Source: Escherichia coli
Lineage (GTDB): Bacteria; Pseudomonadota; Gammaproteobacteria; Enterobacterales; Enterobacteriaceae
Reading direction: 5' to 3' (one strand)
DNA: 64,000 bases
NCBI RefSeq assembly: GCF_003018115.1
Contig: NZ_CP027457.1
Both the position numbers and the translations under genes were made by a program. The notes under the pieces were generated by a model. It had not been told where the DNA came from. It did no database searches and was given only the letters and a program-made list of their open reading frames with translations. Shown here piece after piece: positions 1 to 35,620 of the stretch (position 1 is the first letter of the stretch; the number at the start of each line of letters is the position of its first letter).

Positions 1-291
1 ACTAAGCAGTGTTGGGATGATAATGCTGCGTGTTTTATAGAAACTGGCACCCAGTACCGCGAAGCCGACCAGCGTGGGCACGAAACGGCGTGTATCGTGC
101 ATCACTTCTGGTGCGGTAGAGACAACCAGCAGAGCGCATATCGAGGCGATGCCAATGGTGTCGAGCAAAATACCTACCGCGCCACGTTTGGTTGGGCGGG
201 CATTACCCACACGCAGGCGCAGCGGCAAATAGCGGAAGCAATAATTCGCTGCGCCAACCAGTAACCCAAGCAGCAGAACCTCATAGCTCAT
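1..291 (-). CDS. ygaH: AzlD-family small subunit of branched-chain amino-acid exporter (YgaH); 3' end cut by window edge
   Basis: Minus-strand frame from ATG at ~289-291 stays open to position 1 and reads [23 protein letters not shown]..., hydrophobic; start overlaps ygaZ stop. Absent from ORF track because it has no in-window stop. Confidence 0.7.
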
Positions 292-1018
292 CGGGCGCTC
301 CTTGCCAGAATGCCTGGATTAACGCAGTGAGGCAGCCACAGACAATGCCTGCCAGAATGGCGACGGGAATAGAAAATAGCGTTACGCCTGCAAGGGCACC
401 AACTAACGCTGCGGTAACGCAAAGAGATTGTTTGCGCTGGAAAGAGGCGAGCAGGAAACTCATAAAGAGTGCCGGAAGCATAAAACCTAATGCTGCTTCA
501 ACGGCGGGATAACCTTGCAGCAAGCCGCTGCCGGAGAATGCCCCTATTACCGTACCAAATACCCACGATGACCATGAACTGAAGGCAATGCCGATCATCC
601 AGTTCTCGCTCCAGCGGCGATTATTGCGTACCAGTTTTGCGGTGGCGGCGGCAAAAACCTCATCCGTCAGGCCAAACGCCCATAGGGCGGTTTTCGATTT
701 TTGCAGACGCTGAATAATACGGCTACGCAGTGACGGGCCATACAAAACATGGCGAACATCCATTGCCATGACGGTCAGTGCAGCAACCCACAAACTACTC
801 CCTGCTGCCAGCATCGCGGTAATGACGAACTGGCTCGCGCCTGCATAAATGATGCAGGAGAAAAAAACGCTTTCGAGAGGAGAGAATCCCAGACGGGTCG
901 CATTCAGACCGAACGCAAAGGCCACCGGAATATAACTAATAACAATCGGTAAACTGTCTTTGCATCCTTCCATGAAGGTCGCCGAACCAGGAGCAGGCTG
1001 TGGAGTAGGGCTTTCCAT
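281..1018 (-). CDS. ygaZ: AzlC-family branched-chain amino-acid (valine) exporter subunit
   Basis: 245-aa [24 protein letters not shown]..., multi-pass membrane protein; conserved position upstream of ygaH. Confidence 0.85.
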
Positions 1019-1141
1019 AGAGTGTACGCTTAACGATTGTTAATATTATAAATAGACTGAATGAATATCTTAACCTTATCAGACTGATGGGCTTCTTAAC
1101 ACCCTTATAAGTGTAAAGCCACGAAAACGGTTGCTGATTGC

Positions 1142-2326
1142 TTAATTTGCGGCTTCCTGACGATGAAAACCTCGCCACCAGACCAGTAAGTTAACCAGGG
1201 CAATCGTCGCGCCAGCCAGACAAACGCCAGCCCAACCGCCATGTTGCCAGGCTGAGGCTGAAATTAGCGAACCGGCGGCACCGCCAATAAAGTAGCTGGT
1301 CATGTAACCTGCGGTCAGGCGATTACGCGCATCAGGGTGTATTCGATAAATTACCGTCTGGTTAGTGATATGCACGCCCTGAACGGTGAGATCCAGCACC
1401 AGGATTCCGATAATCAACGCCAGTACGGAAGTGTGACCAAACCAGATCGCCAGCCATGAAAGTAATAGCAGCAGCAGACCGAAAGTTGTGGTGTGGTGCG
1501 ATTTGCCCTTATCGGCAAAACCGCCCGCCGGACGAGCGCCCAACGCTCCGGCAGCTCCCGCAAGTCCAAACAGACCAATTACACCATCGCTGTAGTTAAA
1601 AGGTGGAGCGGCAAGCAAAAAGGCCATTGAGGTCCAGAGAATGCTGAAATTGGCAAAGGTCAGGCAGCCCAGCAACGCGCGGGTACGCAGAATTTTATCG
1701 CTGATAAACATACTGAAAACGGAACCCAACAACTGTGGGTAGTTGAGGTGGGTTTCTGATTTCATTTGTGGCAGACCACGCCATAATGCCAGCGCCATCA
1801 GTGCCATTAACACCGAGGCAACCCAAAAGACGGTGCGCCAGCCGCCGAGATTCGCCAGCAATCCGGCAACGGTCCGTGCGAGTAAGATCCCCAACAGCAG
1901 ACCGCTCATAATAGTGCCAACCACTTTGCCGCGTTTGTCCGGTGAAGCCAGCGTCGCTGCCAGTGGAACCAGAATTTGTGCCACGACTGAGAATAAACCG
2001 GTTAATGCCGTACCGAGGATCATCATCGCCAGCGACTGACTGCTGGCAGTGATTAACATGCCGCCTGCCGCCAGTAAGGTCATCGAGACAATCAGGCGGC
2101 GGCGTTCAAACATATCACCGAGGGGAACAAGAAACAGTAGACCTGCGGCATAGCCCAACTGCGCGGCGGTAACAATAAAGCCTGCCGAACTGGCGGAAAG
2201 GGAAAAGTTACGCGCGATGGTGTCGAGCAATGGCTGGGCGTAATAATTACTGGCTACCGCCAGACCGGTGGCGATAGACATCAGCACGATCAGCGCCGGG
2301 CTAAGCTCATGATTAGGTTTGGTCAT
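1142..2326 (-). CDS. ygaY: MFS-family transporter, intact 394 aa
   Basis: 394-aa ORF with 12-TM-like hydrophobic profile and MFS-type motifs; sits between ygaZ and proX. Confidence 0.75.
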   Translation of the reverse strand: MTKPNHELSPALIVLMSIATGLAVASNYYAQPLLDTIARNFSLSASSAGFIVTAAQLGYAAGLLFLVPLGDMFERRRLIVSMTLLAAGGMLITASSQSLAMMILGTALTGLFSVVAQILVPLAATLASPDKRGKVVGTIMSGLLLGILLARTVAGLLANLGGWRTVFWVASVLMALMALALWRGLPQMKSETHLNYPQLLGSVFSMFISDKILRTRALLGCLTFANFSILWTSMAFLLAAPPFNYSDGVIGLFGLAGAAGALGARPAGGFADKGKSHHTTTFGLLLLLLSWLAIWFGHTSVLALIIGILVLDLTVQGVHITNQTVIYRIHPDARNRLTAGYMTSYFIGGAAGSLISASAWQHGGWAGVCLAGATIALVNLLVWWRGFHRQEAAN

Positions 2327-2428
2327 TATTTTTGTTCATCAGGTGATGATTAAGCTGGAAATCAATAATAGCGGATGTTGATGAATATGGGATGAAAGAT
2401 AGATTGTTGAAATGTGCGATGTGGTTTG

Positions 2429-2465
2429 TAGGCATGATAGGACGCGTTAGCGTCGCATCAGGCAT
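2429..2465. repeat. REP (repetitive extragenic palindromic) element
   Basis: gtaggcatgataggacgcgttagcgtcgcatcaggc is an imperfect palindrome of the GCCTGATGCGACGC REP type, in the ygaY-proX intergenic space. Confidence 0.6.
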
Positions 2466-2517
2466 TGTGTACAGAGCGGCGGATGAGGCAAAAACGCCTA
2501 ATCCGCCCGAATAAAAA

Positions 2518-3510
2518 TTACTTCTGCGCTGCCAGCGCCTCATTCACCCAGCCATCGAACTGCTGCTGGTGGGCTTTGATCCAGCCATCAACATGGCCCT
2601 GAATATCGCCTTCTGAGGCTTTGCCGTCATGCATAATGGCGTTCTGGGCGTTAATATCTGCCACTGGCAACTGCATAATGGCAAACAGTTTCGCTGCTGC
2701 CGGGTTTTTCTCGGCCCAGGCTTTATTGGCAACGATATGCATGGTGCTGACCGGGAAGCCGTAATTCGCGCCATTCGGCAGTTTGGTATCGGCATTTTTA
2801 TCGCCCGGCAGTGCAGAGAACGGCACCTGCAACCAGACCACATCTTTCCCTGGCTTCAGCTCATTACTCACCCAGTACGGCGTCCAGGTGTAGTAAAACA
2901 CCGGTTTGCCCTCTTTGTAACGACTGATGGTGTCAGCCATCATCGCCGCGTAGTTCCCCTGATTATGCGTCACGGTATTGGTCAGTTCATACGCGGCAAG
3001 CTGGTGGTTGATCGCACCTTCGCAGCCCCAGCCAGGGTTACAGCCAGTCAAATCCGCTTTACCGTCGCCGTTGGTATCGAACAGTTTGGCGATCTTCGGA
3101 TCTTTCAGTTGTGCGATGTTGGTGATTTTGTACTGGTCGGCGGTTTTCTTATCGATCAGGTAACCCTGTGCCGCGCCGTTAACAAATACCCCTTCACGAT
3201 AAAATTTCTTATCGCCACCGGCAGCTTCGTACATGTTGTCATGCAGTGGCGTCCAGTTCACGGCGGTGAAGGTTGCATCGCCGGAAGCAAGCGAGGTGTA
3301 GCCAACGTTGTAATCCACTTCGCTGGGTTTATTGACGGTATAACCTAATTTCTCCAGCGCACGACTGACCAGCAGTGTCTGGAAGGTTTCTTCGGTGATG
3401 GTGCTTTGAACTGGATTAACAGTAATGCCTTTGCCCGGCAGATCGGCAGCAAAAGTTTGTGTAGAGATAAGCGTGGCAAACGCTGTCGCAAAAAGTACGC
3501 TATGTCGCAT
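2518..3510 (-). CDS. proX: Glycine betaine/proline ABC transporter periplasmic binding protein
   Basis: ORF 2518..3558; likely start [21 protein letters not shown] (signal peptide) at 3510; ProX-like sequence; proVWX order. Confidence 0.9.
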
Positions 3511-3566
3511 TGTTATTCCTTTTTTTGGCAGGGTGATATGCCCGGCGTCACCGGGCAAGTGCAGAG

Positions 3567-4631
3567 TTACTTAATGAATGGGCGGGTCAGCAGACCGACA
3601 GGGCCAGTGGTGTACCAGCGACGGTTGCCGCGACTGCGTGAGTCGCGCCCAACGGCCTGCGTCAGGCGATCGAGGATAATGGCGAGGATCACAATCCCGA
3701 CGCCGCCAACGGTGGCAAGCCCCATATCCAGACGACCGATACCGCGAAGTACCATCTGACCCAGCCCGCCGACGGCAATCATCGAGGCAATGACCACCAT
3801 AGAAAGGGCCAGCATCAGCGTCTGGTTAACGCCCGCCATAATGGTCGGCATCGCCAGCGGTAACTGAACTTTGAACAGCATCTGGCGCGGGCTGGCACCG
3901 AATGAGCGCGAGGCTTCAATCAGATCCGCCGGAACCTGGTTAATCCCCAGAATGGTCAGACGGATAATCGGCGGCAGAGCAAAGATGATCGTCACCACCA
4001 CGCCCGGCACGTTACCGATACCAAACAGCATGACGATTGGCACCAGATAAACAAACGCTGGCGTGGTCTGCATGGCATCAAGCAGTGGACGAATAATTTT
4101 CGCCGCTCGTGGACTTCTCGCCAGCCAGATCCCCAACGGCAAACCGATGACGATACAGAACAGCAGGGCGGTTAACACCAGCGCCAGAGTCACCATTGCC
4201 TGCGACCAGGCACCGATTGCGCCGATGGCAATCAGCGAAACCAGCGTCGCCACACCCATTCCGACCCCGGAAATCTGCCAGGCGATGAGAGCGAAAACGA
4301 TAATCGCCACCGGTGCGGGCATACCCAGCAGCAATTGCTGGAAACCGTTGAGGATATAATCAACCGGAACGCGCACGCCCTGGAAGACGGGACGGAAATG
4401 GGTAACAACCCAGTCGATCCCTTCAGTGACCCAACTGTCGAGCGGGATCAGCGTTTTATGGAACGGATCGAGAATATTAAAATGCTCGACGTTTGGCGCA
4501 GGCGTACTGGTCAGCCAGTCAGCACCACCACCGTCAGTCGGTGCAGTCGCCGGTGTACCCCAGGCGTCTGCGGATTGCACGGCACTGTCCGCCGCTGGCG
4601 TGGTATCCCACGGATTATTTTGATCAGCCAT
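3567..4631 (-). CDS. proW: Glycine betaine/proline ABC transporter permease
   Basis: 354-aa ORF, hydrophilic N-terminus followed by ABC permease membrane domain; overlaps proV stop. Confidence 0.9.
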
Positions 4632-5826
4632 TATTTACCCCCTCACGATCTAAAGCGCGCAGCAGCATTCCTTTCGAAATGATGCCGACATACTGTTGGT
4701 CCTCGTCGACCACGGGCACCGCACAGGGTGCCTGTCCGACATGAGAGAGCAACTCGCTAAGAGGCGTTTGTGCATCGACTGCTAACGGCGCATCAATCAG
4801 CGCCGCATCAAGACCTTGCTGCTGCGTTAACGCGGTTTTAAGCGAATCGATGGAAACTGCGCCGACAAACTTATTACCGCGTTCGATAACGTAGCCATAT
4901 TCGCGATCTTCATCCTGCAATAATTTCAGTGCCGAACGTGGGCCGAAGCCAGGGGTTTTACGAATTAAGCCATTCGGTGTCCGGCGGGCAATATCTTTCG
5001 CACTGAATACCTGACTAATATCAACGCCACGGAAGAAGGTACGGACATAATCATTCGCCGGATTATTGAGAATTTCATCCGGTGTGCCGACCTGTACCAC
5101 TTCACCATTTTGCATAATGGCAATTCGGTCGCCAATACGCATAGCCTCATCGAGATCGTGGGAAATAAAGACAATGGTGCGCTGATGTTTCGCCTGTAAT
5201 TTTACCAGCTCATCCTGCATCTCGGTGCGAATTAATGGATCGAGCGCCGAGAAGGCTTCGTCCATTAATAATATATCCGGATTAATCGCTAACGCGCGGG
5301 CTAATCCCACACGTTGACGCATCCCGCCAGAGAGTTCATCCGGGTAGCTGTGGGCATAATTTTCCAGCCCGACCTGACGCAGTGCATCAAGGGCTTTTTC
5401 CCGGCGTTCTTCGGCATTAATTCCGGCCAATTCCATACCGAACGCAGTATTGTCCAGCACGGTCATATGCGGCATTAAGGCAAAGGACTGGAAGACCATC
5501 GCAATCTTTTTTCTGCGCACCTCACGGAGTTCGGCATCGGATATTTTGGCAATATCCACACCATCAATCAGCACTTGCCCGCGGGTGGGTTCAATCAGGC
5601 GATTGAGAAGGCGTACCATTGTGGATTTACCCGAGCCGGATAATCCCATGATGACAAATATCTCGCCTTCTTCAATGGCCAGACTGGCGTCTTTTACGCC
5701 AAGCGATAGCCCAGTTTTTTCCAGAATTTGTTCTTTCGAAAGTCCTTGTTCGATATATTTGAACGCTCGCTGTGGATGCTCGCCAAATATTTTATAAAGA
5801 TTTTTAATTTCTAATTTAATTGCCAT
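4624..5826 (-). CDS. proV: Glycine betaine/proline ABC transporter ATPase
   Basis: Walker [13 protein letters not shown] signature LSGGMRQR, C-terminal CBS-like region; start set at [15 protein letters not shown] (ATG 5824-5826) rather than the longer ORF-track extension. Confidence 0.9.
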
Positions 5827-6180
5827 GCAATAGAAAGATTCCTTTATTTGTTTATGTCGATATATTACCCAATGGAAATAGTCACTTTTTTCTACCCTAA
5901 CATACTGAGAATCTGAGGCAACCCCTGAGGGCAAATGTGGCATGAATATTGATGCGAGCAAATCGCCGGAATTTCCCGTGATATAAGGGCTGAGAGCAAA
6001 TCGAGAAAAGTTGATATTTTTTGTCATAGATGGCGAAAAAACGCCTGAATATTGTAGTTTCAGGCGAATAATGCAACAGAGTATCAGTGTAGATCACCAC
6101 AAAATATTTGCGTGATAAAAAGCTATTTGGCGGGAATTATTTCCCTGCTGCGGGTAGTGATATTTTTGAAAATAACACCC
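5827..6180 (-). promoter_or_regulatory. proU (proVWX) promoter/leader region
   Basis: Intergenic AT-rich region upstream of proV; the osmoregulated promoter is expected here by gene order; individual elements not resolved. Confidence 0.4.
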
Positions 6181-7149
<969 letters not shown>

Positions 7150-9294
7150 TTAAAGTGCACAGGAGACGCAGCCTTCAATTTCAGTGCCTTCCAGCGCCAT
7201 CTGACGCAGGCGAATGTAATAGAGCGTTTTGATACCTTTGCGCCAGGCGTAAATCTGCGCTTTGTTGATATCGCGAGTGGTGGCGGTATCGGGGAAAAAC
7301 AGCGTCAGCGACAGCCCCTGATCGACATGGCGAGTCGCTTCCGCGTAGGTGTCGATGATCTTTTCTGCGCCAATTTCGTAAGCGTCCTGATATAGCGCCA
7401 GATTTTCGTTAGTCATAAACGGGGCAGGGTAGTAAACGCGTCCTGTTTTGCCCTCTTTGCGTATCTCTACTTTCGCCACAATCGGATGAATACTCGACGT
7501 AGCATGGTTGATATAAGAGATAGAACCGGTTGGCGGCACCGCCTGGAGATTCTGGTTGTAAATGCCGTAGCGCATCACGTCATCGCGCAGCTGCGCCCAC
7601 ATCTCACGGGTAGGTAACGTAATACCGCTGCGGGCAAACAGTTCGCCAACTTTCGCCGTTTTCGGCTGCCAGTTACCTTGCAGATATTGGCTGAAATATT
7701 CACCACTGGCATAGCGTGACTGTTTGAACCCGGCGAAGGTTTGACCGCGTTCGCGCGCCAGCAACATCGAGGTACGCAGGGCGTGCCAGGTGATGGTATA
7801 GAAATAGAGATTGGTGAAATCCAGTGCTTCCGGCGAACCATAAGCGATGCCTTCTCGCGCCAGATAACCGTGTAAATTCATCTGCCCCAGTCCGATGGCG
7901 TGCGAGGCGGCATTTCCGGCTTCGATGGACGGCACGCTGCGGATATGACTCATATCTGATACTGCCGTTAAACCGCGCACGGCAGTCTCTACCGTGCGGG
8001 CAAAGTCGGGAGAATCCACGGTGTGGGCAATATTCAACGAACCTAAATTGCAGGAAATATCATGGCCTGTACGGGCATAGTCGAGATTCTCGCCATACTC
8101 TGATGCGCTGTTAACCTGCAAAATTTCTGAGCAGAGATTGCTCATATTTATGCGCCCGGCGATAGGGTTAGCACGGTTAACCGTGTCTTCATACATGATG
8201 TAGGGATAGCCGGACTCAAACTGGATTTCTGCCAGTCGCTGGAAGAAATCACGGGCGTTGATGTATTTTTTGCGGATGCGTTCATCGGCGACCAGTTCGT
8301 CATAGTGTTGGCTGATGGGCACATCGGCAAACGGCTTGCCATAAACCCGCTCAACGTCATAAGGCGAAAACAGCGCCATCTGCGCATTCTCTTTTGCCAG
8401 ATGGAAAGTGATATCCGGGATCACCACGCCCAGCGACAGTGTTTTAATGCGGATTTTTTCGTCGGCATTTTCCCGTTTTGTATCGAGAAAACGCAGGATA
8501 TCGGGATGATGAGCATGTAAATAGACTACCCCAGCCCCCTGACGCGCGCCGAGCTGGTTGGCATAGGAAAATGCGTCTTCCAGCATTTTCATCACCGGGA
8601 TCACGCCAGAAGATTGATTTTCAATACGTTTAATTGGCGCGCCCGCTTCCCGCAGATTCGACAGCAAAAATGCCACGCCGCCGCCGCGTTTCGACAGTTG
8701 CAGTGCGGAATTTACCGCCCGACCAATCGACTCCATATTGTCTTCAATACGCAGTAAAAAACAGGAAACCAGTTCGCCGCGCTGCTGCTTACCGCAGTTG
8801 AGGAATGTTGGCGTGGCTGGCTGAAAGCGTCCAGACAGCATCTCATCAGTCAGTTGCGTCGCCAGCGTCTCATCGCCTTGTGCCAGCGTCAGCGCCACCA
8901 TCGTGACTCGATCGGCAAAATCTTCCAGATAACGCTTACCGTCGAATGTCTTCAACGTATAGCTGGTGTAAAACTTCCATGCCCCAAGGAATGTCTGGAA
9001 ACGAAAACCGCTGGCGTGCGCGTGGGCAAACAGCGTAATGACAAAATCGCGAGAGTAGCGATTAAGGGCACTTTCATCATAGTAACCTTCGTTAACCAGC
9101 CAGTTCAGGCGCTGCTGCTGGCTACTGAAGGTCACACTGTTCGGACGCACATGCGTCGCAATAAAGGCGTCAACGGCCTGGCGGTCTTTATCGAACTGAA
9201 TGCGACCTGCGCTATCGTAGAGGTTAAGCATCGCATTCAGCGCGTGATAATCCATCGTTTCCTGCGTCAGGCGTTCTGCGGTTGTCGTTGCCAA
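7150..9294 (-). CDS. nrdE: Class Ib ribonucleotide reductase alpha subunit
   Basis: 714-aa ORF with RNR large-subunit features (NLCSEI active-site region, C-terminal CxxC tail). Confidence 0.9.
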
Positions 9295-9677
9295 AATTCG
9301 GTTACTCCTTTACGAACGTTTTCGATATCGCTTTGCGTACCCATGAGTTCAAAACGGTACAGCCACGGCACGCCGCATTTCTGAGCAATCACATCTCCGG
9401 CACGGCCATACGCCTCACCAAAGTTGCGATTACCCGAAGCAATAACGCCGCGAAGCAACGCCCGGTTGTGCTCGTCGTTTAAAAAGCGAATTACCTGTCG
9501 TGGCACCGCGCCAGCCGTACCGCCGCCGCCGTAAGAGGGCACGATCAGGATGTAAGGCTCGTCTACCTGAATCCGTTCCCGCTCATTGAGCGGGATGCGC
9601 ACCGCGGGCAGACCTAAACGTTCGATAAAACGCTGCGTATTTTCGGAGCTGCTGGAAAAGTAGACGAGCTGGCTCAT
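9267..9677 (-). CDS. nrdI: Flavodoxin-like NrdI
   Basis: 136-aa [24 protein letters not shown]...; overlaps nrdE start and nrdH stop. Confidence 0.9.
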
Positions 9678-9919
9678 GCACTGGCCGCGTGTGGCGCTGG
9701 ATGCAGACGATTGATCATGTCCGGGCGGAAACCAGACCAGCTAAGATCGCCTGCAATCACTACCGGCAACTGACGAAAGCCCTGAGCACGCAACGCTTCC
9801 GCCGCTTCAGGAACGCGATCGACATTAATCATTTCAAAATCAAAGCCCCGGTTTTCCATCGCCCGTTTGGTGGCGTGGCACTGAACGCAATCGTTACGAG
9901 TGTAAATAGTAATGCGCAT
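9674..9919 (-). CDS. nrdH: Glutaredoxin-like NrdH redoxin
   Basis: 81-aa [24 protein letters not shown] with CVQC redox motif. Confidence 0.9.
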
Positions 9920-9992
9920 GATTCGTATTTCCGTTTAAAATGAAGATACGGCGCGATGATACGCGTCGGGTTGTCTCTCTGTTGATACAGAG

Positions 9993-10039
9993 ATACTAGA
10001 TGTAGTTGAAAAAAGATTCAACCACACAATATATAGCAA
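9993..10039. promoter_or_regulatory. Candidate tandem NrdR boxes in the nrdHIEF promoter
   Basis: Two AT-rich 16-bp imperfect palindromes (atactagatgtagttg and acacaatatatagcaa) about three helical turns apart, roughly 75-120 bp upstream of nrdH. Confidence 0.4.
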
Positions 10040-10166
10040 ATAGTGGTCGAAATTACCCTGGATATGAGCGTGACGGGGTAGGGGGATTTTTGTGATTCAC
10101 CAGGCAAAAAGAAACCCCGAAGACAGGCTTCGGGGTCAAAGACGCGTATTTATTATCATTGTTGCA

Positions 10167-10496
10167 CTACGATTTGCGCATACTTAACAGTGCGCCGATA
10201 AAAATACCTACCGCAGCTGCTGTACCCACGCTACACCAGGGTCTTTCACGAACAAAAGAATCCGCGCAGCCAACGGCATCGCGTGCGGCTTGCTGGACGC
10301 GAGTACGACCATGCATTCGCGCCCTGGTTTCTTTCAGCAATGCCTGAGCTTTACTGCGTGCGGCTTCAGCTTCCCCTTTGGCGTCGCTGCCCCAGGACTT
10401 CAATACAGATTCGAGGCTGTCAGCTAATTGATTGACATCATTCTGGATATCCTGCACGCCATCATCAACGTCGTTGCGGTTCGGTCGGTTAAACAT
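10167..10496 (-). CDS. ygaM: ElaB/YqjD/YgaM-family membrane-anchored protein
   Basis: ORF 10167..10508; start taken at MFNRPNRNDVDD; C-terminal hydrophobic anchor GTAAAVGIFIGALLS. Confidence 0.8.
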   Translation of the reverse strand: MFNRPNRNDVDDGVQDIQNDVNQLADSLESVLKSWGSDAKGEAEAARSKAQALLKETRARMHGRTRVQQAARDAVGCADSFVRERPWCSVGTAAAVGIFIGALLSMRKS

Positions 10497-10647
10497 ATGA
10501 TCCCCCATTAGAATTCGATGTAATTTTCAGTGTAGACCATAATTTTCTTAACTGAGGTTCATCGCGGCTTTATGGACTTTTCTGAAAGCGTTGTGAATGC
10601 GCAATCAGGTAAGGTAGGCCCGCGGTTGATAATAACGAGGATCAAAT

Positions 10648-10992
10648 ATGTATTTACGACCAGACGAGGTGGCGCGCGTACTTGAAAAAGTCGGTTTTAC
10701 TGTCGATGTGGTAACCCAGAAAACGTATGGTTACCGCCGTGGGGAAAATTATGTCTATGTTAATCGCGAAGCGCGAATGGGACGTACCGCACTGGTAATT
10801 CATCCAACATTAAAAGAACGTAGTTCGACACTGGCTGAACCCGCTTCCGATATTAAAACTTGCGATCATTATCAACAATTTCCGCTCTATTTAGCAGGCG
10901 AGCGACACGAGCATTACGGTATCCCGCATGGCTTTAGTTCGCGTGTTGCGCTTGAACGTTATTTGAATGGTTTATTTGGCGAAGCCAGTTAA
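10648..10992 (+). CDS. ygaC: Uncharacterized protein YgaC
   Basis: 114-aa [24 protein letters not shown]...; conserved position. Confidence 0.8.
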
Positions 10993-11028
10993 AGACGCGA
11001 CTGGCGATGCCAGTCGCGAAAAGAAGAG

Positions 11029-11478
11029 TCAGGCTTTTACCTGCTGGTAACGGCTGACTTTAAACAGTCGGCGGCAATAATCGAGGAAGTAGCCATAAAC
11101 CGCCCCCATCAACATCGAAACAACGATGTTTGAACTGACCGCCGCCATAATCTGACGCCAGTCTGCGCCCACCACTAACAAGATCGCCACATACACCGGT
11201 GACTGGAACGTCACATAAGCCAGGATATCCGCCAGATTTTTTATCCAGCCCGACGGGCTAACTTTGCGTGCCGCGCGCATAAACAGATCGCGGTACATAC
11301 CGTATGGCCATGCAATTAAGATGTTCACCGGAATCGCTACCAATCTGGAATAAAAAGACTGTTCGAAGCTCATTCCGGAGAGGAAAACTTCAATACACAT
11401 GTTCACGACAGAACAGTAAACAACCATCGCGAACGTATCTGCAACTGCATGACGCAAGCGTGACTGCGGTGAGAACAT
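11029..11478 (-). CDS. alaE: L-alanine exporter
   Basis: 149-aa hydrophobic [24 protein letters not shown]... Confidence 0.8.
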
Positions 11479-12145
11479 GCTAATGCTCCTTAATAAAAGC
11501 GTAATGGGATGTTAATGGAGATGAAAACAGTGGATCTCATTGCCATCTGCATTTTCGCATAGCGTATATCGCTGGCTATGACTAATCAATTAGTGAAAAA
11601 TTCTTATTTAGTCAGTTTTTGTAGATAAAATATTCCGTAACGGCTCGTTTTTTGTACATTGTGGATTTTTACATGCCGATATGATTTATTTTCAATTAAA
11701 TCAATTAGATATGACCTTGCCTTTAATTTCACTAATGAAAGTTTGGGAGTGAGGTAACGCTATAAGCGTAGAGAATTCGGTGTATGTCGTGACCGTGTCA
11801 TTTACAGCATTTTTTATGCCAGAAAATGTACATTAACAGCAGAAAGCACCAGTGAGGGGTGTTTTCTTTTATTCTGTTATATTGCATTTTTATTCACTTC
11901 GGTTTTGTCAGGCTTGCGGAATTAGCGTGCAGAGAGCGCCGTTCTGTTCACCAATAATCTAAATTACTCATCAAAATGGCTAATATATAATCTTGAAATT
12001 ATTCTGAGAGTTTCAGAAAATAACAGCTGAAATAATCTCGCGCAGGACTGTAAATAGATTAAATTTTGTGGAAATATAATAAGTGATCGCTTACACTACG
12101 CGACGAAATACTTTTTTGTTTTGGCGTTAAAAGGTTTTCTTTATT

Positions 12146-12550
12146 ATGTCCGTAATGTTACAAAGTTTAAATAACATTCGCACCCTCCGTGCGATGGCTC
12201 GCGAATTCTCCATTGACGTTCTTGAAGAAATGCTCGAAAAATTCAGGGTTGTCACTAAAGAAAGACGTGAAGAAGAAGAACAGCAGCAGCGTGAACTGGC
12301 TGAGCGTCAGGAAAAAATTAGCACCTGGCTAGAGCTGATGAAGGCTGACGGAATTAACCCGGAAGAGTTATTGGGTAATAGCTCTGCTGCTGCACCACGC
12401 GCTGGTAAAAAACGCCAGCCGCGTCCGGCGAAATATAAATTCACCGATGTTAACGGTGAAACTAAAACCTGGACCGGTCAGGGCCGTACACCGAAGCCAA
12501 TTGCTCAGGCGCTGGCAGAAGGTAAATCTCTCGACGATTTCCTGATCTAA
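12146..12550 (+). CDS. stpA: H-NS paralog DNA-binding protein StpA
   Basis: 134-aa [35 protein letters not shown]... with C-terminal [12 protein letters not shown]-binding motif; preceded by a long AT-rich leader. Confidence 0.9.
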
Positions 12551-12596
12551 TTACTGAGGCCGGATGTCGCTGCTAGGGCGCGTCCGGCGTCGCTTC

Positions 12597-13121
12597 TCAA
12601 GCTCGTTGGTTCCACGGCATCTTATCTAACAACCTTGCCATTCCACAAAAACCGCTGATTCCTGCAAACAGTAACCCGGCACCAACAAAGCCACTTAATA
12701 AGAAGAAACCGCTATTTACGGTATAACCCAGTACAACGCCGATTAATATTAAACCACCCGCAGCGATCTGCACCTGGCGCATTAACGGCAAGGGTTGAGA
12801 TTTATTTACCGCTACTGGCAATCCAGCTCTTTTCCAGCCATCAATCCCATCTTCGAGTAAAAATATTTCTGCGGGGGCGGCAATCGCTGCTAATTTATCG
12901 GCGTTATTACTGGTGCGTTTACCTGCCTGGCAGTGGAATATAATTTGCTCGCGACGTAATTTAGGTGGAAGACCTGACTGTTCCAGCACGGATAATGGAG
13001 CCAGATCTGCTTCAGGAATATGTTCACGAAGATATTCATCAGCATCACGAATATCGATTAACTTTGCGCCGCGTGCGATTAATTCTTGTGCATCATGCGG
13101 CGAAATGGTTGTCAAAGCCAT
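12597..13121 (-). CDS. ygaP: Membrane-anchored rhodanese (thiosulfate sulfurtransferase)
   Basis: 174-aa ORF; rhodanese active-site region CQAGKRT; C-terminal TM helices. Confidence 0.85.
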
Positions 13122-13130
13122 AGTGACTCC

Positions 13131-13430
13131 TTACGGACAATAGACATTTTTCAGGGTGGCGATAATGGCATTTACCGCCTCATTTTTAATGGAATATAGA
13201 ATGCGTTGGGCATCCCGTTGGCTGTCGATAAGCCCTTCGTCCCGCATACGAGCGAGATGCTGTGATGTCGCAGAGGCACTCAGTCCGGTAATGCGCGTCA
13301 GCTCTCCCGCGCTGGTGCCGGGGGAACCGCTAAGCATGCACAGAATCAGCAATCGTTTAGGATGGCTCATTGCTTTCAATAAGGCCGCTGCCTGTTCGGC
13401 ACTGGCCTGTAATTGCGCGAGTTCAGTCAT
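13131..13430 (-). CDS. ygaV: ArsR/SmtB-family transcriptional regulator
   Basis: 99-aa ORF with wHTH; operon partner of ygaP. Confidence 0.85.
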   Translation of the reverse strand: MTELAQLQASAEQAAALLKAMSHPKRLLILCMLSGSPGTSAGELTRITGLSASATSQHLARMRDEGLIDSQRDAQRILYSIKNEAVNAIIATLKNVYCP

Positions 13431-25630: not shown

Positions 25631-26980
25631 ATGTTAATTAATAAAAGCAACGGATTTAACGCTAGCGCAGTTTGGGGTAGTGGAAGTTATAATGAAAATA
25701 GATCTTCTAAACACATGGAGCTACTAGCTCATAGTATTGTAAAATTAATTTGTAAGGAAGCTGCATCAGAGACGTATCGCGGTGCTCTTGAAGTTTTACA
25801 AAAAATAATGTCTGAATGTATATATCATGAAGGCAACGCCTTTGTCATTATGGGAGCTGGAGAACAATTAAAACGTATTAAATATGATGTTGATGAAAAT
25901 AACTTAAAGGTATTCAATGTACACTTTGATAATAATGAAGCGTTAGTTACTGATGGTGAGCCTGACGTAGTATGTTTAAGCAAGCAGGTCTGGGAAAATC
26001 TTCTCATTAAACTAAAGCTGGAGAACAAAGAAAATACGGCTTCTGAAGTTCATGAATCAGCGAATAAAGGTGAGGTTGAGCAATTAGTTGAATGCTCTAA
26101 GAGAAATGAACAGACCCTTTTCGATAATATAAGAAAAAGTGATTTTCATGTTGGTTCACTTAAGCCAGGTAGTATGAATAGTGTTATTTTAGAAATGCCA
26201 CCAAATGTCTGTATGGAACCACGTAATTCATATGAAAACAAAATAGATGAGGTTTCATCTTTGTCAGAGCCAAAGGAACACACCATAGATATTCAAGAAA
26301 AAACAGATGCGTTTGTGAAGAAGTTCAAGGGGGTATTATTTGATAAAAATACAAGGTCTTCAGAGCTTCTGTTTAATTTTTATGAATGTTGCTATGTGTT
26401 TTTACCAAGAGCGCAGCCTCAGGATAAAATCGAAAGCTATAATTCAGCACTGCAAGCTTTTTCCATCTTTTGTTCATCTACGTTGACACATAATAATATA
26501 GGCTTTGATTTCAAGTTATTTCCAGAAGTCAAGCTGTCTGGAGAACATCTTGAAACGGTATTCAAATACAAAAATGGCGATGATGTCCGGGAGATAGCCA
26601 AAATTAACATTACTCTCCAAAAAGAAGAGGGTGGCTTATATAATCTACGTGGATTGGATTTTAAGGGATGCTTCTTTTCTGGACAGAACTTCAGTAACTA
26701 TGATATTCAATATGTGAACTGGGGAACGTCATTGTTTGATGTTGATACTCCGTGTATTTTTAATACGCCTGCTAACCATGAGAGTTATGAAAAATCATTA
26801 AAACCTGTAAGCGAAAACGGTTTAAATGGAGTCTTATCTGATCGTAATAAAAAAATAAAAATGATCACGGGTGTGGCACCATTCGATGATATTTTATTTA
26901 TGGATGATGACTTTGATGATAACTCCCCTGAGGATGCTCCCATTGAGAATAGTCCTGTTGTGAATAGTCCCCTTGTATGA
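25631..26980 (+). CDS. Uncharacterized AT-rich 449-aa protein (ypjC-like) with C-terminal pentapeptide-like repeats
   Basis: Long ORF with RBS gaggaa upstream; residues GLDFKGCFFSGQNFSNYDIQYVNWGTSLFD fit a pentapeptide-repeat pattern; position between tRNA-Ile and the pin remnant. Confidence 0.5.
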   Translation: MLINKSNGFNASAVWGSGSYNENRSSKHMELLAHSIVKLICKEAASETYRGALEVLQKIMSECIYHEGNAFVIMGAGEQLKRIKYDVDENNLKVFNVHFDNNEALVTDGEPDVVCLSKQVWENLLIKLKLENKENTASEVHESANKGEVEQLVECSKRNEQTLFDNIRKSDFHVGSLKPGSMNSVILEMPPNVCMEPRNSYENKIDEVSSLSEPKEHTIDIQEKTDAFVKKFKGVLFDKNTRSSELLFNFYECCYVFLPRAQPQDKIESYNSALQAFSIFCSSTLTHNNIGFDFKLFPEVKLSGEHLETVFKYKNGDDVREIAKINITLQKEEGGLYNLRGLDFKGCFFSGQNFSNYDIQYVNWGTSLFDVDTPCIFNTPANHESYEKSLKPVSENGLNGVLSDRNKKIKMITGVAPFDDILFMDDDFDDNSPEDAPIENSPVVNSPLV

Positions 26981-27299
26981 AGTTCTAAAAGTAGTTTTCA
27001 ATGATAAATAAATGGCTATTTTTACGAAGAGATAATAACGTAGATTTAAACAATATGTATTATTGATTGAGTAAATGGGATTATTCTTCACACTACATCC
27101 ATTTTAGTGTCACTACCAAAGAAAAAGGGGCTACGTTTTCATGTAACCCCTTGATTTATTTGGTGGGCTGGCAGTGACTGAATTGGTGCTGTAATTGGTT
27201 GAAATATTTCATCTAATGTCTGGTTCAACTTTCCTTAGCTGCCTGAAAGTTTTTTGATCTTACCCAGCAATAACAGCGTTACGGTGCACCACGCCTGAC

Positions 27300-27525
27300 T
27301 GAAGAACTGCGTGCTCAGGGTTACCACTTCAACGTAAAACTGTGGCAGGAGGTCCGGTCTGAAAAAACTGCACAGGACATCATCGGCAGGGAACGCACTG
27401 GTAGTCTGTAAACTGAACCGACTGGGGCGCAGTATGTGGCATCTTGTCGTGCTGTTGGAGGAGCTGTGCGAACGTGGTATTAACTTTCGTGCTCTGGCCC
27501 AATCTATATTTGCCCAACAATGGGG
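27300..27525 (+). pseudogene. pinH: Remnant of a Pin/Hin/Gin-family DNA invertase (pinH-like fragment)
   Basis: Plus-strand translation ...[48 protein letters not shown] aligns with the central part of the intact invertase at 58439..59005 (LSAGDTLVVWKLDRLGRSMQHLVTLIEELRQRGVNFRSL); no N-terminal catalytic Ser region. Confidence 0.65.
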
Positions 27526-27906
27526 GGACGGAAGCTGTAAAAGTAAAATAATCTGCGATCTCAGATTTATTGAGTGATTTTTATGTGAGCAGAAGATATT
27601 CATCAGAAACGATTATGTAAATCATTTTATTTTGCCGACTGCCTGATTGTCGAAAGAAAAGAATACGCCCGTGTTTCCTGAATAGATTGACTTTTTTATC
27701 CAACCACACTTCAGCGCACTGCGTTTAAAAAATGCCTCATTCTTATGCGGAATATCATCATTTCATCATGATGTCTTTGATGAGCGGTGAACACAATACA
27801 CTTGCGCTGTCTCTTCAGGATGAATCCCCTGGTCTGGTGCCTGTGGGCTGATGTTGCAGCAAAGCTAAGGTCGCTTAAACGCTACTCAGTATTCACTTTT
27901 CAGAGG

Positions 27907-30900
27907 ATGAAATTTATGAACAGGACCAGTCCCCATTATTGTCGCCGCTCAGTACTTTCCTTATTGATATCTGCCCTGATATATGCCCCGCCCGGGATGG
28001 CGGCCTTTACTACTAATGTTATTGGTGTGGTAAACGATGAGACTGTAGATGGTGTCCAAAAAGTAGATGAACGAGGTACAACAAATAACACTCATATTAT
28101 CAACCATGGCCAGCAGAATGTTGAAGGCGGGGTATCCAATGGAAGTATTATTGAATCGGGTGGATATCAAGATGTAGGAAGGCATAATAATTTTGTGGGG
28201 CAGGCTAATAATACAACCATTAACGGGGGCAGACAGTCAATTCATGACGGGGGTATTTCCACAGGTACGACAATCGAGAGTGGCAATCAGGACGTTTATA
28301 CAGGTGGTATCAGCAATGGAACGACAATTAAGGGTGGTAATTCACACATAAGTGGGGGGACTGCGAATGGAACAATCATTGATGGTGGCAGCCAACGAGT
28401 AACAACTCAGGGGCATGTCGACAGTACAACGATAAATAAGTCTGGCTCTCAGGACATCACGCAAGGAAGTCTGGCAACGAACACAACCATAAATGGTGGT
28501 CGACAGTATGTTGAACAGAGCACAGTAGAAACAACAACCATTAAAAATGGCGGTGAGCAAAGAGTATATGAGAGCCGTGCGCTGGACACGACGATTGAAG
28601 GCGGAACTCAGTCTCTGAATAGTAAGTCAACGGCAAAAAATACGCAGATCTATTCTGGTGGCACGCAAATTGTTGATAACACCAGCACCTCGGATGTTAT
28701 TGAAGTTTATTCCGGTGGCGTGCTTGATGTTAGTGGTGGTACGGCAACAAATGTTACCCAGCACGATGGTGCAATTTTAAAAACAAACACTAACGGTACG
28801 ACGGTGAACGGTACGAATAGTGAAGGTGCATTCTCCATCCACAATCACGTGGCAGACAATGTGTTGCTGGAAAACGGTGGTCATTTAGACATAAACGCAT
28901 ATGGTTCGGCAAACAAGACGATTATCAAAGATAAAGGAACAATGTCAGTTTTAACCAATGCTAAAGCTGATGCGACCCGAATAGATAATGGCGGGGTTAT
29001 GGATGTTGCCGGAAACGCGACAAATACCATAATTAATGGTGGCACACAGAATATTAATAATTATGGCATAGCCACAGGCACTAATATCAACAGCGGAACG
29101 CAAAATATCAAAAGCGGCGGGAAAGCTGACACAACAATTATATCCTCCGGGAGCCGGCAGGTTGTTGAGAAAGATGGTACGGCAATTGGCAGCAATATTA
29201 GCGCCGGAGGCTCACTGATTGTCTATACCGGCGGTATTGCACATGGGGTTAACCAGGAGACGGGCAGTGCTTTAGTTGCCAACACGGGTGCAGGGACTGA
29301 TATCGAAGGATACAACAAGCTCTCTCACTTCACTATTACCGGAGGGGAGGCTAATTATGTTGTGCTGGAAAATACCGGCGAACTGACGGTAGTGGCTAAA
29401 ACCTCGGCGAAAAATACTACCATTGATGCTGGCGGTAAGCTGATTGTCCAGAAGGAGGCTAAAACAGATAGCACCAGACTTAATAATGGCGGCGTTCTGG
29501 AGGTTCAGGACGGTGGTGAGGCTAAGCATGTTGAGCAACAATCCGGCGGCGCATTAATTGCTTCCACGACCTCCGGAACACTTATCGAAGGAACCAACAG
29601 TTATGGTGATGCTTTCTACATCAGGAATTCAGAAGCTAAAAATGTAGTGCTGGAAAACGCTGGCTCATTAACAGTCGTCACTGGTTCCCGGGCAGTTGAC
29701 ACGATTATTAATGCCAACGGCAAAATGGATGTTTATGGAAAAGATGTTGGCACTGTACTCAATAGTGCTGGCACCCAAACAATATATGCCAGTGCCACTT
29801 CTGATAAAGCAAATATCAAAGGTGGCAAGCAAACGGTATATGGTTTAGCCACTGAAGCAAATATCGAAAGTGGTGAACAAATTGTTGATGGCGGGTCAAC
29901 AGAGAAAACACACATCAATGGTGGCACGCAAACCGTTCAGAATTATGGTAAGGCAATCAATACCGATATCGTCTCTGGCCTACAACAAATTATGGCAAAC
30001 GGGACAGCGGAAGGTTCCATTATTAATGGGGGTTCACAGGTAGTTAATGAGGGCGGTCTGGCTGAAAACTCGGTGCTTAATGACGGCGGCACACTCGATG
30101 TGCGGGAGAAAGGCAGCGCAACGGGGATACAGCAGAGTAGCCAGGGCGCTTTGGTTGCAACCACCAGGGCGACGCGGGTCACAGGAACACGCGCGGATGG
30201 CGTCGCGTTCAGCATCGAGCAGGGTGCGGCGAACAATATCCTGCTGGCAAATGGCGGCGTGTTAACCGTGGAGTCAGACACCACTTCCGCCAAAACACAG
30301 GTCAATACGGGCGGACGGGAGATCGTCAAAACAAAAGCCACTGCGACAGGCACGACGCTCACCGGCGGTGAACAAATTGTCGAGGGTGTGGCGAATGAGA
30401 CAACAATTAACGACGGCGGAATACAAACAGTTTCAGCTAACGGAGAGGCAATAAAAACAAAGATCAATGAAGGCGGAACGCTGACAGTCAACGATAATGG
30501 CAAAGCGACAGATATCGTCCAGAACAGCGGTGCCGCTCTCCAGACGAGCACGGCTGACGGTATTGAAATCAGCGGTACTCACCAGTACGGCACTTTTTCC
30601 ATTTCCGGCAATTTAGCGACCAATATGTTGCTGGAAAATGGCGGTAATTTATTGGTATTAGCAGGTACCGAAGCTCGCGACTCCACGGTTGGCAAGGGTG
30701 GGGCAATGCAAAACCTGGGTCAGGACTCCGCCACAAAGGTTAACTCTGGTGGGCAATATACCCTTGGGCGGTCAAAAGATGAGTTTCAGGCTCTGGCCCG
30801 GGCAGAAGATCTCCAGGTCGCTGGCGGGACGGCAATCGTCTACGCAGGTACGCTGGCGGATGCATCGGTCAGTGGCGCGACAGGAAGCCTGTCGTTAATG

Positions 30901-32502
30901 ACGCCACGGGATAATGTTACGCCAGTTAAACTCGAAGGGGCGGTCCGGATTACCGATAGCGCGACATTGACTCTGGGAAATGGCGTCGATACAACGCTTG
31001 CCGACCTGACGGCTGCCAGCCGGGGCAGTGTCTGGCTTAACAGCAATAATTCCTGTGCAGGCACCAGCAACTGCGAGTATAGAGTAAACAGTTTGCTACT
31101 TAACGACGGTAATGTTTATTTATCAGCACAAACAGCAGCGCCTGCCACAACTAACGGTATCTACAATACGCTGACAACCAATGAACTTTCCGGTAGCGGT
31201 AATTTCTACCTGCATACCAACGTTGCAGGCTCCCGGGGCGATCAACTGGTCGTCAACTACAACGCCACTGGTAATTTTAAAATCTTTGTTCAGGATACCG
31301 GCGTCAGCCCACAGTCTGACGACGCGATGACGCTGGTGAAAACAGGGGGAGGGGATGCTTCGTTTACGCTGGGCAATACCGGCGGTTTCGTTGATCTTGG
31401 GACCTATGAGTATGTCCTGAAAAGCGACGGCAACAGCAACTGGAACCTGACCAATGATGTCAAACCCAACCCGGACCCCAACCCAAATCCAAATCCGAAG
31501 CCAGACCCAAAACCCGATCCAACGCCAGACCCAAATCCAAAACCAGACCCGACTCCCGAGCCAACGCCGACACCCGTTCCGGAGAAACGCATCACGCCTT
31601 CTACCGCAGCCGTACTCAATATGGCAGCAACATTACCGTTGGTATTTGATGCTGAGCTAAACAGTATTCGCGAGCGGTTGAACATAATGAAAGCGAGTCC
31701 ACACAACAATAATGTCTGGGGGGCGACGTATAACACCCGTAATAATGTCACCACCGATGCGGGTGCCGGGTTTGAGCAGACGCTGACAGGAATGACAGTG
31801 GGGATCGACAGCCGTAATGATATTCCTGAAGGAATTGCCACGCTGGGCGCTTTTATTGGTTATTCCCATTCACATATCGGTTTTGATCGCGGAGGACATG
31901 GCAGTGTGGGCAGTTATTCTCTGGGCGGCTATGCCAGTTGGGAACATGAAAGTGGTTTCTATCTGGACGGTGTCGTGAAGCTGAACCGTTTTGAAAGTAA
32001 CGTAGCCGGTAAAATGAGCAGCGGTGGAGCCGCCAATGGCAGTTACCACAGCAACGGGCTGGGCGGTCACATTGAAACCGGGATGCGATTTACCGATGGT
32101 AACTGGAACCTGACGCCGTATGCATCGTTAACGGGGTTCACCGCTGATAACCCTGAATATCATTTATCCAATGGCATGGAATCGAAATCAGTCGATACCC
32201 GCAGTATATATCGTGAACTGGGTGCAACGCTGAGTTACAACATGCGTCTGGGGAACGGTATGGAAGTTGAGCCGTGGCTGAAGGCGGCTGTGCGCAAAGA
32301 ATTTGTCGATGATAACCGGGTGAAGGTGAATAATGACGGTAATTTCGTCAATGATTTGTCGGGCAGACGTGGAATATACCAGGCAGGTATTAAAGCCTCA
32401 TTCAGCAGTACGTTAAGCGGGCATCTCGGGGTGGGGTATAGCAACGGTGCCGATGTGGAATCCCCGTGGAACGCGGTGGCTGGTGTGAACTGGTCGTTCT
32501 GA
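27907..32502 (+). CDS. ypjA: AIDA/YpjA-type autotransporter adhesin
   Basis: Start MKFMNRTSPHYCRRSVLSLLISALIYAPPGMAA (signal peptide); glycine/threonine-rich repetitive passenger; proline-rich PNPDPNPNPNPKPDPKPDP linker; C-terminal beta-barrel ending ...AVAGVNWSF. Confidence 0.85.
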   Translation: MKFMNRTSPHYCRRSVLSLLISALIYAPPGMAAFTTNVIGVVNDETVDGVQKVDERGTTNNTHIINHGQQNVEGGVSNGSIIESGGYQDVGRHNNFVGQANNTTINGGRQSIHDGGISTGTTIESGNQDVYTGGISNGTTIKGGNSHISGGTANGTIIDGGSQRVTTQGHVDSTTINKSGSQDITQGSLATNTTINGGRQYVEQSTVETTTIKNGGEQRVYESRALDTTIEGGTQSLNSKSTAKNTQIYSGGTQIVDNTSTSDVIEVYSGGVLDVSGGTATNVTQHDGAILKTNTNGTTVNGTNSEGAFSIHNHVADNVLLENGGHLDINAYGSANKTIIKDKGTMSVLTNAKADATRIDNGGVMDVAGNATNTIINGGTQNINNYGIATGTNINSGTQNIKSGGKADTTIISSGSRQVVEKDGTAIGSNISAGGSLIVYTGGIAHGVNQETGSALVANTGAGTDIEGYNKLSHFTITGGEANYVVLENTGELTVVAKTSAKNTTIDAGGKLIVQKEAKTDSTRLNNGGVLEVQDGGEAKHVEQQSGGALIASTTSGTLIEGTNSYGDAFYIRNSEAKNVVLENAGSLTVVTGSRAVDTIINANGKMDVYGKDVGTVLNSAGTQTIYASATSDKANIKGGKQTVYGLATEANIESGEQIVDGGSTEKTHINGGTQTVQNYGKAINTDIVSGLQQIMANGTAEGSIINGGSQVVNEGGLAENSVLNDGGTLDVREKGSATGIQQSSQGALVATTRATRVTGTRADGVAFSIEQGAANNILLANGGVLTVESDTTSAKTQVNTGGREIVKTKATATGTTLTGGEQIVEGVANETTINDGGIQTVSANGEAIKTKINEGGTLTVNDNGKATDIVQNSGAALQTSTADGIEISGTHQYGTFSISGNLATNMLLENGGNLLVLAGTEARDSTVGKGGAMQNLGQDSATKVNSGGQYTLGRSKDEFQALARAEDLQVAGGTAIVYAGTLADASVSGATGSLSLMTPRDNVTPVKLEGAVRITDSATLTLGNGVDTTLADLTAASRGSVWLNSNNSCAGTSNCEYRVNSLLLNDGNVYLSAQTAAPATTNGIYNTLTTNELSGSGNFYLHTNVAGSRGDQLVVNYNATGNFKIFVQDTGVSPQSDDAMTLVKTGGGDASFTLGNTGGFVDLGTYEYVLKSDGNSNWNLTNDVKPNPDPNPNPNPKPDPKPDPTPDPNPKPDPTPEPTPTPVPEKRITPSTAAVLNMAATLPLVFDAELNSIRERLNIMKASPHNNNVWGATYNTRNNVTTDAGAGFEQTLTGMTVGIDSRNDIPEGIATLGAFIGYSHSHIGFDRGGHGSVGSYSLGGYASWEHESGFYLDGVVKLNRFESNVAGKMSSGGAANGSYHSNGLGGHIETGMRFTDGNWNLTPYASLTGFTADNPEYHLSNGMESKSVDTRSIYRELGATLSYNMRLGNGMEVEPWLKAAVRKEFVDDNRVKVNNDGNFVNDLSGRRGIYQAGIKASFSSTLSGHLGVGYSNGADVESPWNAVAGVNWSF

Positions 32503-32512
32503 CCATCAACGA

Positions 32513-32536
32513 AAAAGCCCACATCTGTGGGCTTTC
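32513..32536 (+). terminator. Rho-independent terminator downstream of ypjA
   Basis: Hairpin agcccacatctgtgggct followed by a T-run, immediately after the ypjA stop. Confidence 0.6.
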
Positions 32537-32663
32537 ATGTCGCCAGGAGCCGCGGCTCCTTTGCGTATCCTTTTTTGTCTCCTCACCGTCTGGTCGGTGT
32601 CCTGCTGAGACTGCTAACTTCCTGTTTTTGTTGGTGTTGTCCTTACACCGTCCAATCATGATT

Positions 32664-32708
32664 GGTGGAGCTGGCGGGAGTTGAACCCGCGTCCGAAATT
32701 CCTACATA
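32664..32708 (-). repeat. tmRNA (ssrA) 3'-end-like sequence: prophage att core copy
   Basis: Minus strand reads gtaggaatttcggacgcgggttcaactcccgccagctccacca, i.e. the acceptor/T-arm end of tmRNA with CCA; no upstream tmRNA body, so this is a partial duplicate. Confidence 0.7.
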
Positions 32709-32792
32709 CCATTTTCACTATAATAAAAACATTAACTTGCGTTTAAAATCAGTAAGTTAGTATTATCTTGTGTTTGCTCGTTTTACTCATTT

Positions 32793-33839
32793 TTAATGCT
32801 CTGTCGCCAATCTGTCGCCATTGTAGGTCAACGAAGGTTGAGCCTTCCCTTTGTTTGTTATAATTTCATCAAAGATAGCTGGATTATTATCTTTCAGTAA
32901 TCTTGCTAGTATAATGATTTGCCCAGACGAGCCATCATCCTTGAATGAAAGGAAATTATCGGTAATATCAAGAATATCAATGGTAAATTTGAAGTAAGTT
33001 TCAATTGTATCGCCAAGCTCAATGCTGGACATGAAGTTAGTAACCATTTCATATCCATCAAAGTATAAAGTTGCATGTTCATTTAACTCCATTGGAGTTA
33101 GGCAAAGCATTCGATTAAGTTCGGATAAGTGTTTTTCTATTGAATGAAGAGATTGCATTTGACGGATTAAAACTTCGTCAAACTGAGAGCCATGATTAGA
33201 TGAATGTATCTTCTCTAGGTTTTTTAGTATATCAACCCAGTGATTATTCACTTCACGTATGTATTCTTTATCTGTATTTTTAGGCCGTCCCTTCTCTGGT
33301 GAGCTATTTATGAAAATATATCTATATAGATGTATTGGGTAGTTAATTTTATAACTTATCTCTTTAGTACCATAATGACGTTCGCGTTTAATGGTTTTGT
33401 TAGGTAAATTGGTGAAATAATCAGTAACGAACTTTAGATGGCTATAGTAGCTATCAGATAGATTCTTTTGCTTGGTTTCCTCAATTTGTCGGTTTGTTTG
33501 AACTGTGCGGTGTATGTTTGCTACGACAGCAACAAATGGTATGGACAAAGAAAGTAAGGCGATAGGAAGCTTGCTAATTGCAATGAAATTATTAAAGCCC
33601 TCACTATCAAATTGAGGGGAATGTCCAAGCCAGGAAAATATACCAAAGTATATCGCTGAAAATACAGGAATCCTAAGTGATTGTTTAAATAAGTATTGAC
33701 TTGTTAATGGCCTTTCATCCATGTTAAAGCCTTTTTTTGATACGCATAGATATAATTCAAGGCATATATATAAAAAATATATTATGATAAGTAAGTACGA
33801 TATCCATGGGTATTGTTGGATATAGTTATTAACAAACAC
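32793..33839 (-). CDS. Prophage cargo: uncharacterized membrane-anchored protein (348 aa)
   Basis: Very AT-rich ORF between att core and integrase; N-terminal hydrophobic helices (YLLIIIYFLYICLELYL, IPVFSAIYFGIFSWLG, LPIALLSLSIPFVAVVANI) followed by a soluble domain; start overlaps the integrase stop. Confidence 0.6.
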   Translation of the reverse strand: MFVNNYIQQYPWISYLLIIIYFLYICLELYLCVSKKGFNMDERPLTSQYLFKQSLRIPVFSAIYFGIFSWLGHSPQFDSEGFNNFIAISKLPIALLSLSIPFVAVVANIHRTVQTNRQIEETKQKNLSDSYYSHLKFVTDYFTNLPNKTIKRERHYGTKEISYKINYPIHLYRYIFINSSPEKGRPKNTDKEYIREVNNHWVDILKNLEKIHSSNHGSQFDEVLIRQMQSLHSIEKHLSELNRMLCLTPMELNEHATLYFDGYEMVTNFMSSIELGDTIETYFKFTIDILDITDNFLSFKDDGSSGQIIILARLLKDNNPAIFDEIITNKGKAQPSLTYNGDRLATEH

Positions 33840-34868: not shown

Positions 34869-34871
34869 AAG

Positions 34872-35510: not shown

Positions 35511-35620
35511 ACCTCTTGATGTATATAAAAAGTGATCCTAATATCCATCCATGGTTTGAAAAGCAAAACCAAACCACATAAAACAAGATAAAACGAAACC
35601 AAACTAAGAGATACTGCACT
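35511..35620. promoter_or_regulatory. Divergent lysis/lysogeny promoter-operator region (pR/pL-like)
   Basis: Short AT-rich space between divergent cI and apl; individual operators not resolved. Confidence 0.45.

Follow-up and report, generated by a model that had tools for sequence, protein, structure and literature searches.

TCDB lists YgaY (P76628) as 2.A.1.36.3, a member of the YnfM (acriflavin-sensitivity) family with function unknown (PMC5417439). The founding member of this family, the E. coli MFS protein YnfM (b1596; TCDB 2.A.1.36.1), has been reported to be a proton-dependent, CCCP-sensitive glutarate exporter of BL21(DE3), a strain in which deletion of ynfM alone abolished detectable glutarate export (PMC12622518). 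In the genome of K-12 MG1655 (NC_000913.3), ygaY (b2681; UniProt P76628) is annotated as a pseudogene of 1178 bp (2808316..2809493), in the order proX-ygaY-ygaZ. For metabolic engineers the K-12 locus is a routine neutral site of integration (PMC11566304, PMC11731478), and it has also served as a neutral deletion control (10.1101/072470). A chromatin study of proVWX in K-12 found that H-NS bridges ygaY DNA to the proVWX downstream regulatory element and that ygaY transcripts, though low, are detectable and rise after osmotic shock (10.1101/2023.07.10.548347). In the searchable literature on ygaY we found these pseudogene and integration-site uses, the chromatin study and the TCDB table entry, and no experiment on the intact protein.

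That ygaY is intact in other strains and a pseudogene in K-12 is already known: the pseudogene is part of the reference annotation, and thousands of genomes have the intact allele annotated. To this we add the precise nature of the lesion, the finding that it is recent and restricted to K-12, and the evidence for selection on the intact gene. We consider it very probable that the locus described below is the ancestral, functional form of this YnfM-family MFS gene and that the K-12 lineage carries a recent 7-bp loss-of-function allele.

An intact ygaY between proX and ygaZ

The window analysed here is a stretch of 64,000 nucleotides from E. coli (contig NZ_CP027457.1). Its ygaY gene (Table 1) lies on the minus strand, opens with an ATG codon and encodes 394 amino acids, with the TAA stop inside the end coordinate of the ORF listing. 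The first-pass annotation had described a continuous MFS-type ORF of this length between ygaZ and proX, and the description is upheld by the ORF itself and by its match to Pfam PF07690 (MFS_1; 142.2 bits against a gathering cutoff of 33.4, E 2.6e-41, in two stretches). Secondary Pfam matches were obtained to Sugar_tr and to MFS_4 (residues 31-381). A chance ORF is ruled out by the MFS_1 score together with an identical annotated RefSeq CDS: the locus of E. coli F9792 is 100% identical to the window ygaY and is annotated, with identical start and stop, as WP_000165699.1, 'MFS transporter'.

In the RefSeq annotation of F9792, the genes upstream of ygaY are proVWX, and those downstream are ygaZ, ygaH, emrR (mprA) and emrA; the K-12 gene has the same neighbours as that of the window (proVWX upstream; ygaZH, mprA and emrAB downstream). 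The exact protein sequence is found in at least 1000 public contigs, with the UniRef name 'Putative uncharacterized transporter YgaY', and several phylogenetically separate strains encode this same protein, WP_000165699.1. A megablast search with positions 1020..2520 of the window recovered the locus from 5,418 of 5,426 complete E. coli genomes, on the chromosome in every case. The gene is a chromosomal core gene of E. coli.

Table 1. Features of the ygaY locus, in window coordinates
Feature	Position	Strand	Basis
ygaZ, downstream neighbour, AzlC-type L-valine exporter subunit	281..1018	-	ORF and annotation
Promoter-like site TTAAGA-17-TATAAT, 10/12	1045..1073	-	ygaY-ygaZ spacer; consensus scan, pattern match only
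ygaY CDS, intact, 394 aa and TAA	1142..2326	-	ORF; MFS_1 142 bits; annotated as WP_000165699.1 in F9792 and in BL21
Perfect 7-nt tandem duplication, GGCGGCA x2 (coding strand)	2059..2072	-	Alignment with NC_000913.3
Segment of about 90 bp directly upstream of the ygaY start, near-invariant in nine strains	2327..2417	-	proX-ygaY spacer alignment
REP/BIME-type palindromic unit just past the proX stop, copy number strain-variable	2418..2517	.	Spacer alignment
proX, upstream neighbour of ygaY	2518..3510	-	F9792 RefSeq annotation, transferred to the window from the identical locus

The similarity to F9792 extends over positions 1..32668 of the window, which are 99.97% identical between the two strains (10 SNPs, 1 indel); divergence begins adjoining ypjA. 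Positions 32669..64000 hold a P2-family prophage with integrase, capsid, tail and DUF262/GmrSD-type cargo genes, and in F9792 this position is occupied by another integrative island, which carries Hxs radical-SAM genes. At 25631..26980, on the plus strand, the window has a single 449-aa ORF of the 'YpjCB family', where K-12 annotates two genes, ypjC and ypjB.

The K-12 lesion and its distribution

The first-pass annotation had stated that ygaY is disrupted in K-12 and had named a pairwise alignment as the check. The pseudogene annotation of NC_000913.3 and a 7-bp deletion bear this out, and in the alignment the K-12 gene is neither intact nor identical to that of the window. The window gene (1185 bp) and the K-12 pseudogene differ at 24 columns of a global pairwise alignment. 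Seven of these columns are a single run of 7 bp missing from K-12, at gene nt 255-261 (window 2066..2072). The remaining 17 are substitutions at third codon positions, all of them synonymous; 1161 of the 1178 aligned bases (98.6%) are identical, and outside the indel the encoded residues are the same.

The gap falls in the tandem duplication listed in Table 1, whose context in the window is CT-GGCGGCA-GGCGGCA-TG, covering codons 85-90 and encoding L-A-A-G-G-M. With both units the window gene reads through to 394 aa, whereas K-12, which keeps one unit, shifts frame at codon 88 and stops: its original frame continues ...L-L-A-A-C-stop, for a product of 88 aa, and contains 14 stops. The other 306 codons of the K-12 gene are unchanged but lie in another frame. 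One repeat unit was deleted in K-12, most likely by replication slippage, and the resulting 88-aa stub ends within the third hydrophobic segment of the protein.

To follow the deletion through the species, we searched 5,417 complete E. coli genomes with 101 bp of K-12 sequence that have the deletion junction at their centre. A perfect match was obtained in 353 of them. In the other 5,064 the alignment covers 108 bases of the subject and needs a gap of 7, meaning that both units are kept, a count that refers to the seven bases at the junction and includes at least one genome (PCP06021) in which ygaY is nonetheless disrupted. The 353 genomes were assembled independently and share an identical junction, which refutes the notion that the frameshift arose from an error in sequencing or assembling the K-12 reference genome. 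PGAP likewise marks the ygaY interval as 'frameshifted' in other, independent assemblies of K-12, as it does in HT-946, a strain with the same pseudogene sequence as K-12. No point in support of an artefact was found, and we give this explanation practically no weight.

The names of 60 of the 353 carriers, sampled evenly, were then inspected. All recognisable names were those of K-12 derivatives or of transconjugants in a K-12 recipient. They include MG1655, BW25113, BW2952, C600, J53, JM109, MC4100, TG1 and RP437, as well as S17-1, ET12567, EPI300, NEB Turbo and O16:H48 mouse-colonisation isolates; a few carriers have uninformative names, and their coordinates are K-12-like. The first-pass annotation had presented the locus as a case of strain-level decay versus retention. 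This holds in that the K-12 gene has decayed and the window gene is intact, but not in the sense of a broad polymorphism from strain to strain, given that the deletion occurs in 353 of 5,417 genomes and that the recognisable sampled names belong to K-12. Decay of ygaY is a trait of the K-12 lineage, and the window shows the species norm.

An independent natural loss was noticed in PCP06021, where a deletion fuses the first 159 bp of ygaY to ygaH (positions 3195..3657 of the PCP06021 locus). Most of ygaY, the whole of ygaZ and the beginning of ygaH are missing as a result.

The window also contains a second and more striking case of a gene that is intact here and decayed in K-12. A ygaQ-like ORF of the alpha-amylase family, 750 aa long, is intact at 21992..24244 on the minus strand. 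Its K-12 counterpart, ygaQ (b4462), has the same length and is annotated as a pseudogene; at codons 111, 346 and 614 it has an in-frame TAG where the window has TGG. F9792, the nearest relative of the window, has a nonsense codon of its own at codon 413 (C at window position 23008, T in F9792).

Ancestral state, age and selection

Two sequences taken alone cannot separate a tandem duplication from the deletion of one unit, and on this ground the polarity might be the reverse: the short K-12 form would be ancestral and the window form would have arisen by a frame-opening 7-bp duplication. The full-length MFS protein, however, is obtained only from the long form, which is present in 5,064 of 5,417 genomes, among them the phylogroup-diverse CE10, O157:H7 and BL21, whereas the short form is confined to K-12 derivatives as far as the recognisable names among the 60 sampled carriers go. 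In GCA_026012295.1, an assembly labelled E. fergusonii that serves as outgroup, the gene is intact, encodes 394 aa and has 93.2% nucleotide identity to the window ygaY; it lies in the context proVWX-ygaY-AzlC/AzlD-MarR-EmrA, equivalent to proVWX-ygaY-ygaZH-mprA-emrA. Since the gene of this outgroup is both intact and syntenic, we take the intact form to be ancestral. The outgroup encodes L-A-A-G-G-M as CTGGCAGCTGGCGGTATG, with different codons and without a perfect repeat. The genome survey, the carrier names and the outgroup sequence together refute the reversed polarity, whose probability we regard as negligible. As judged from these codons, the slippage-prone repeat of E. coli ygaY is a by-product of synonymous codon choice.

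The deletion of one unit in K-12 is also recent. Two natural strains, LZHX12 and 51008369SK1, share the haplotype of K-12 but retain the 7 bases, and across the 1185 bp LZHX12 differs from K-12 at the indel site only; it is this zero-substitution distance that makes the lesion recent. Both strains have a T at gene nt 262 (G to T, Gly88Cys), exactly at the repeat. In this haplotype, the closest to K-12, the repeat accordingly reads GCGGCAT x2 and not GGCGGCA x2. Deletion of one unit from either version of the repeat yields the K-12 sequence, and residue 88 of the K-12 ancestor is therefore beyond recovery.

Nine alleles were compared by the Nei-Gojobori method: those of the window, CE10, O157:H7, BL21, EC69, 24A16CRGN010, MEW and strain 73, and a 'repaired K-12' sequence made by inserting GGCGGCA, which assumes the window version at residue 88. 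In pairwise comparisons dS reached 0.17 while dN was at most 0.0046, with dN/dS between 0 and 0.06. Between the window and the E. fergusonii-labelled outgroup, 71 of 81 differences lie at third codon positions. The rare length variants of YgaY seen in its 90% cluster mostly keep the frame and fall at short repeats: a gain of LMA in an LMALMAL run, a loss of L in a poly-Leu run, and a loss of LSWLA in a Shigella dysenteriae entry. One further variant is a C-terminal truncation of 10 residues. These patterns indicate that the intact ygaY is under sustained purifying selection and is a working gene.

Expression, transport role and significance

The segment of about 90 bp upstream of ygaY (Table 1) presumably holds its expression signals. 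A simple scan of this segment found no consensus sigma-70 promoter on the minus strand, and no Shine-Dalgarno sequence is evident upstream of the start, where the leader AACAAAAATA is A-rich. Beyond it, the REP/BIME unit that follows proX is present in one copy in the window, K-12, O157:H7 and CE10 and in two copies (an additional 100 bp) in BL21 and strain 73, while strain MEW has about 360 bp of unrelated sequence in its place.

With no recognisable promoter or Shine-Dalgarno sequence upstream, and with the K-12 region drawn into an H-NS-mediated bridge and its transcripts low (10.1101/2023.07.10.548347), ygaY could be cryptic in the window strain as well, for instance through H-NS silencing, in which case retention of the ORF would have no functional meaning. 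We consider this improbable. A silent gene does not sit well with a dN/dS of 0 to 0.06 across phylogroups, with differences from the outgroup that are concentrated at third positions at 93% identity, or with length variants that mostly keep the frame; moreover, ygaY transcripts are detectable even in K-12 (10.1101/2023.07.10.548347). A functional gene in the window, lost recently in K-12, is our preferred reading.

As to what YgaY transports, an NCBIfam search, in which no equivalog reached its cutoff, gave no substrate assignment. The best full-length NCBIfam similarities are to exporters, namely SotB (PRK03545, residues 11-390), Cmx/CmrA and Bcr/CflA, all below their cutoffs. YgaY is a member neither of the SotB family (NF002921; 63.8 bits against a cutoff of 401) nor of Bcr/CflA (TIGR00710; 50.4 against 200.9 bits). 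A sequence search of the PDB returned weak MFS matches only, the best being GlcP (E 3e-8) and SotB, whose chain 6kki, a solved 12-helix structure, aligns over residues 13-383 (E 5e-4). A Kyte-Doolittle scan gave 10 hydrophobic segments, but it is crude, merges neighbouring helices and is too coarse to count them.

The comparison with YnfM is closer. The two proteins align from end to end (residues 1-390 against 20-414) with 26% identity over 409 columns (BLASTP, 79 bits, E 2e-20), and they have in common a D-x-x-x-R-(R/K) motif in the TM2-TM3 loop, although their identity is only 26% and their genomic contexts differ. The MFS motif A, G-x-x-x-D-(R/K)-x-G-R-(R/K), belongs to the TM2-TM3 loop and is echoed in the TM8-TM9 loop. 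Both copies can be read directly from the YgaY sequence: the N-half copy is degenerate (L69-G70-D71-M-F-E-R75-R76-R77, with E for G) and aligns to L-S-D-A-I-G-R-K of YnfM; the C-half copy is cleaner (G268-G-F-A-D272-K273-G274-K275). Because its best full-length similarities are to exporters and YnfM is a CCCP-sensitive exporter, YgaY may be a proton-coupled exporter of a small organic solute, a role to which we would give roughly even odds. Redundancy with YnfM in glutarate export is unlikely. This candidate was rejected on the behaviour of BL21(DE3), in which ygaY is intact and detectable export was nevertheless lost, under the conditions of that study, on deletion of ynfM alone.

A more ambitious version of the exporter role can be proposed from the position of the gene. 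Since ygaY has the osmoprotectant-uptake genes proVWX on one side and the valine-export genes ygaZH on the other, all on one strand, and no terminator-like site was found by scanning between ygaY and ygaZ, it could be co-expressed with ygaZH. The terminator-like matches of the scan fall inside the coding sequence and are within what shuffled sequence would be expected to give. The promoter-like site in the ygaY-ygaZ spacer (Table 1), a pattern match, is possibly a separate promoter for ygaZH. That the intact YgaY is a conserved working exporter missed by decades of K-12 genetics, co-expressed with ygaZH and acting on a related solute of the amino-acid or osmolyte type, is a long shot that we put forward as speculation.

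The presence of an intact ygaY in the window matters little beyond bookkeeping. The gene itself, on the other hand, is a real and uncharacterised transporter gene: K-12 lacks an intact copy while the gene is under strong purifying selection elsewhere, and YgaY is for this reason out of reach of K-12-based screens. Should it indeed prove to be an overlooked exporter, wild E. coli would possess an efflux capacity that K-12 does not.
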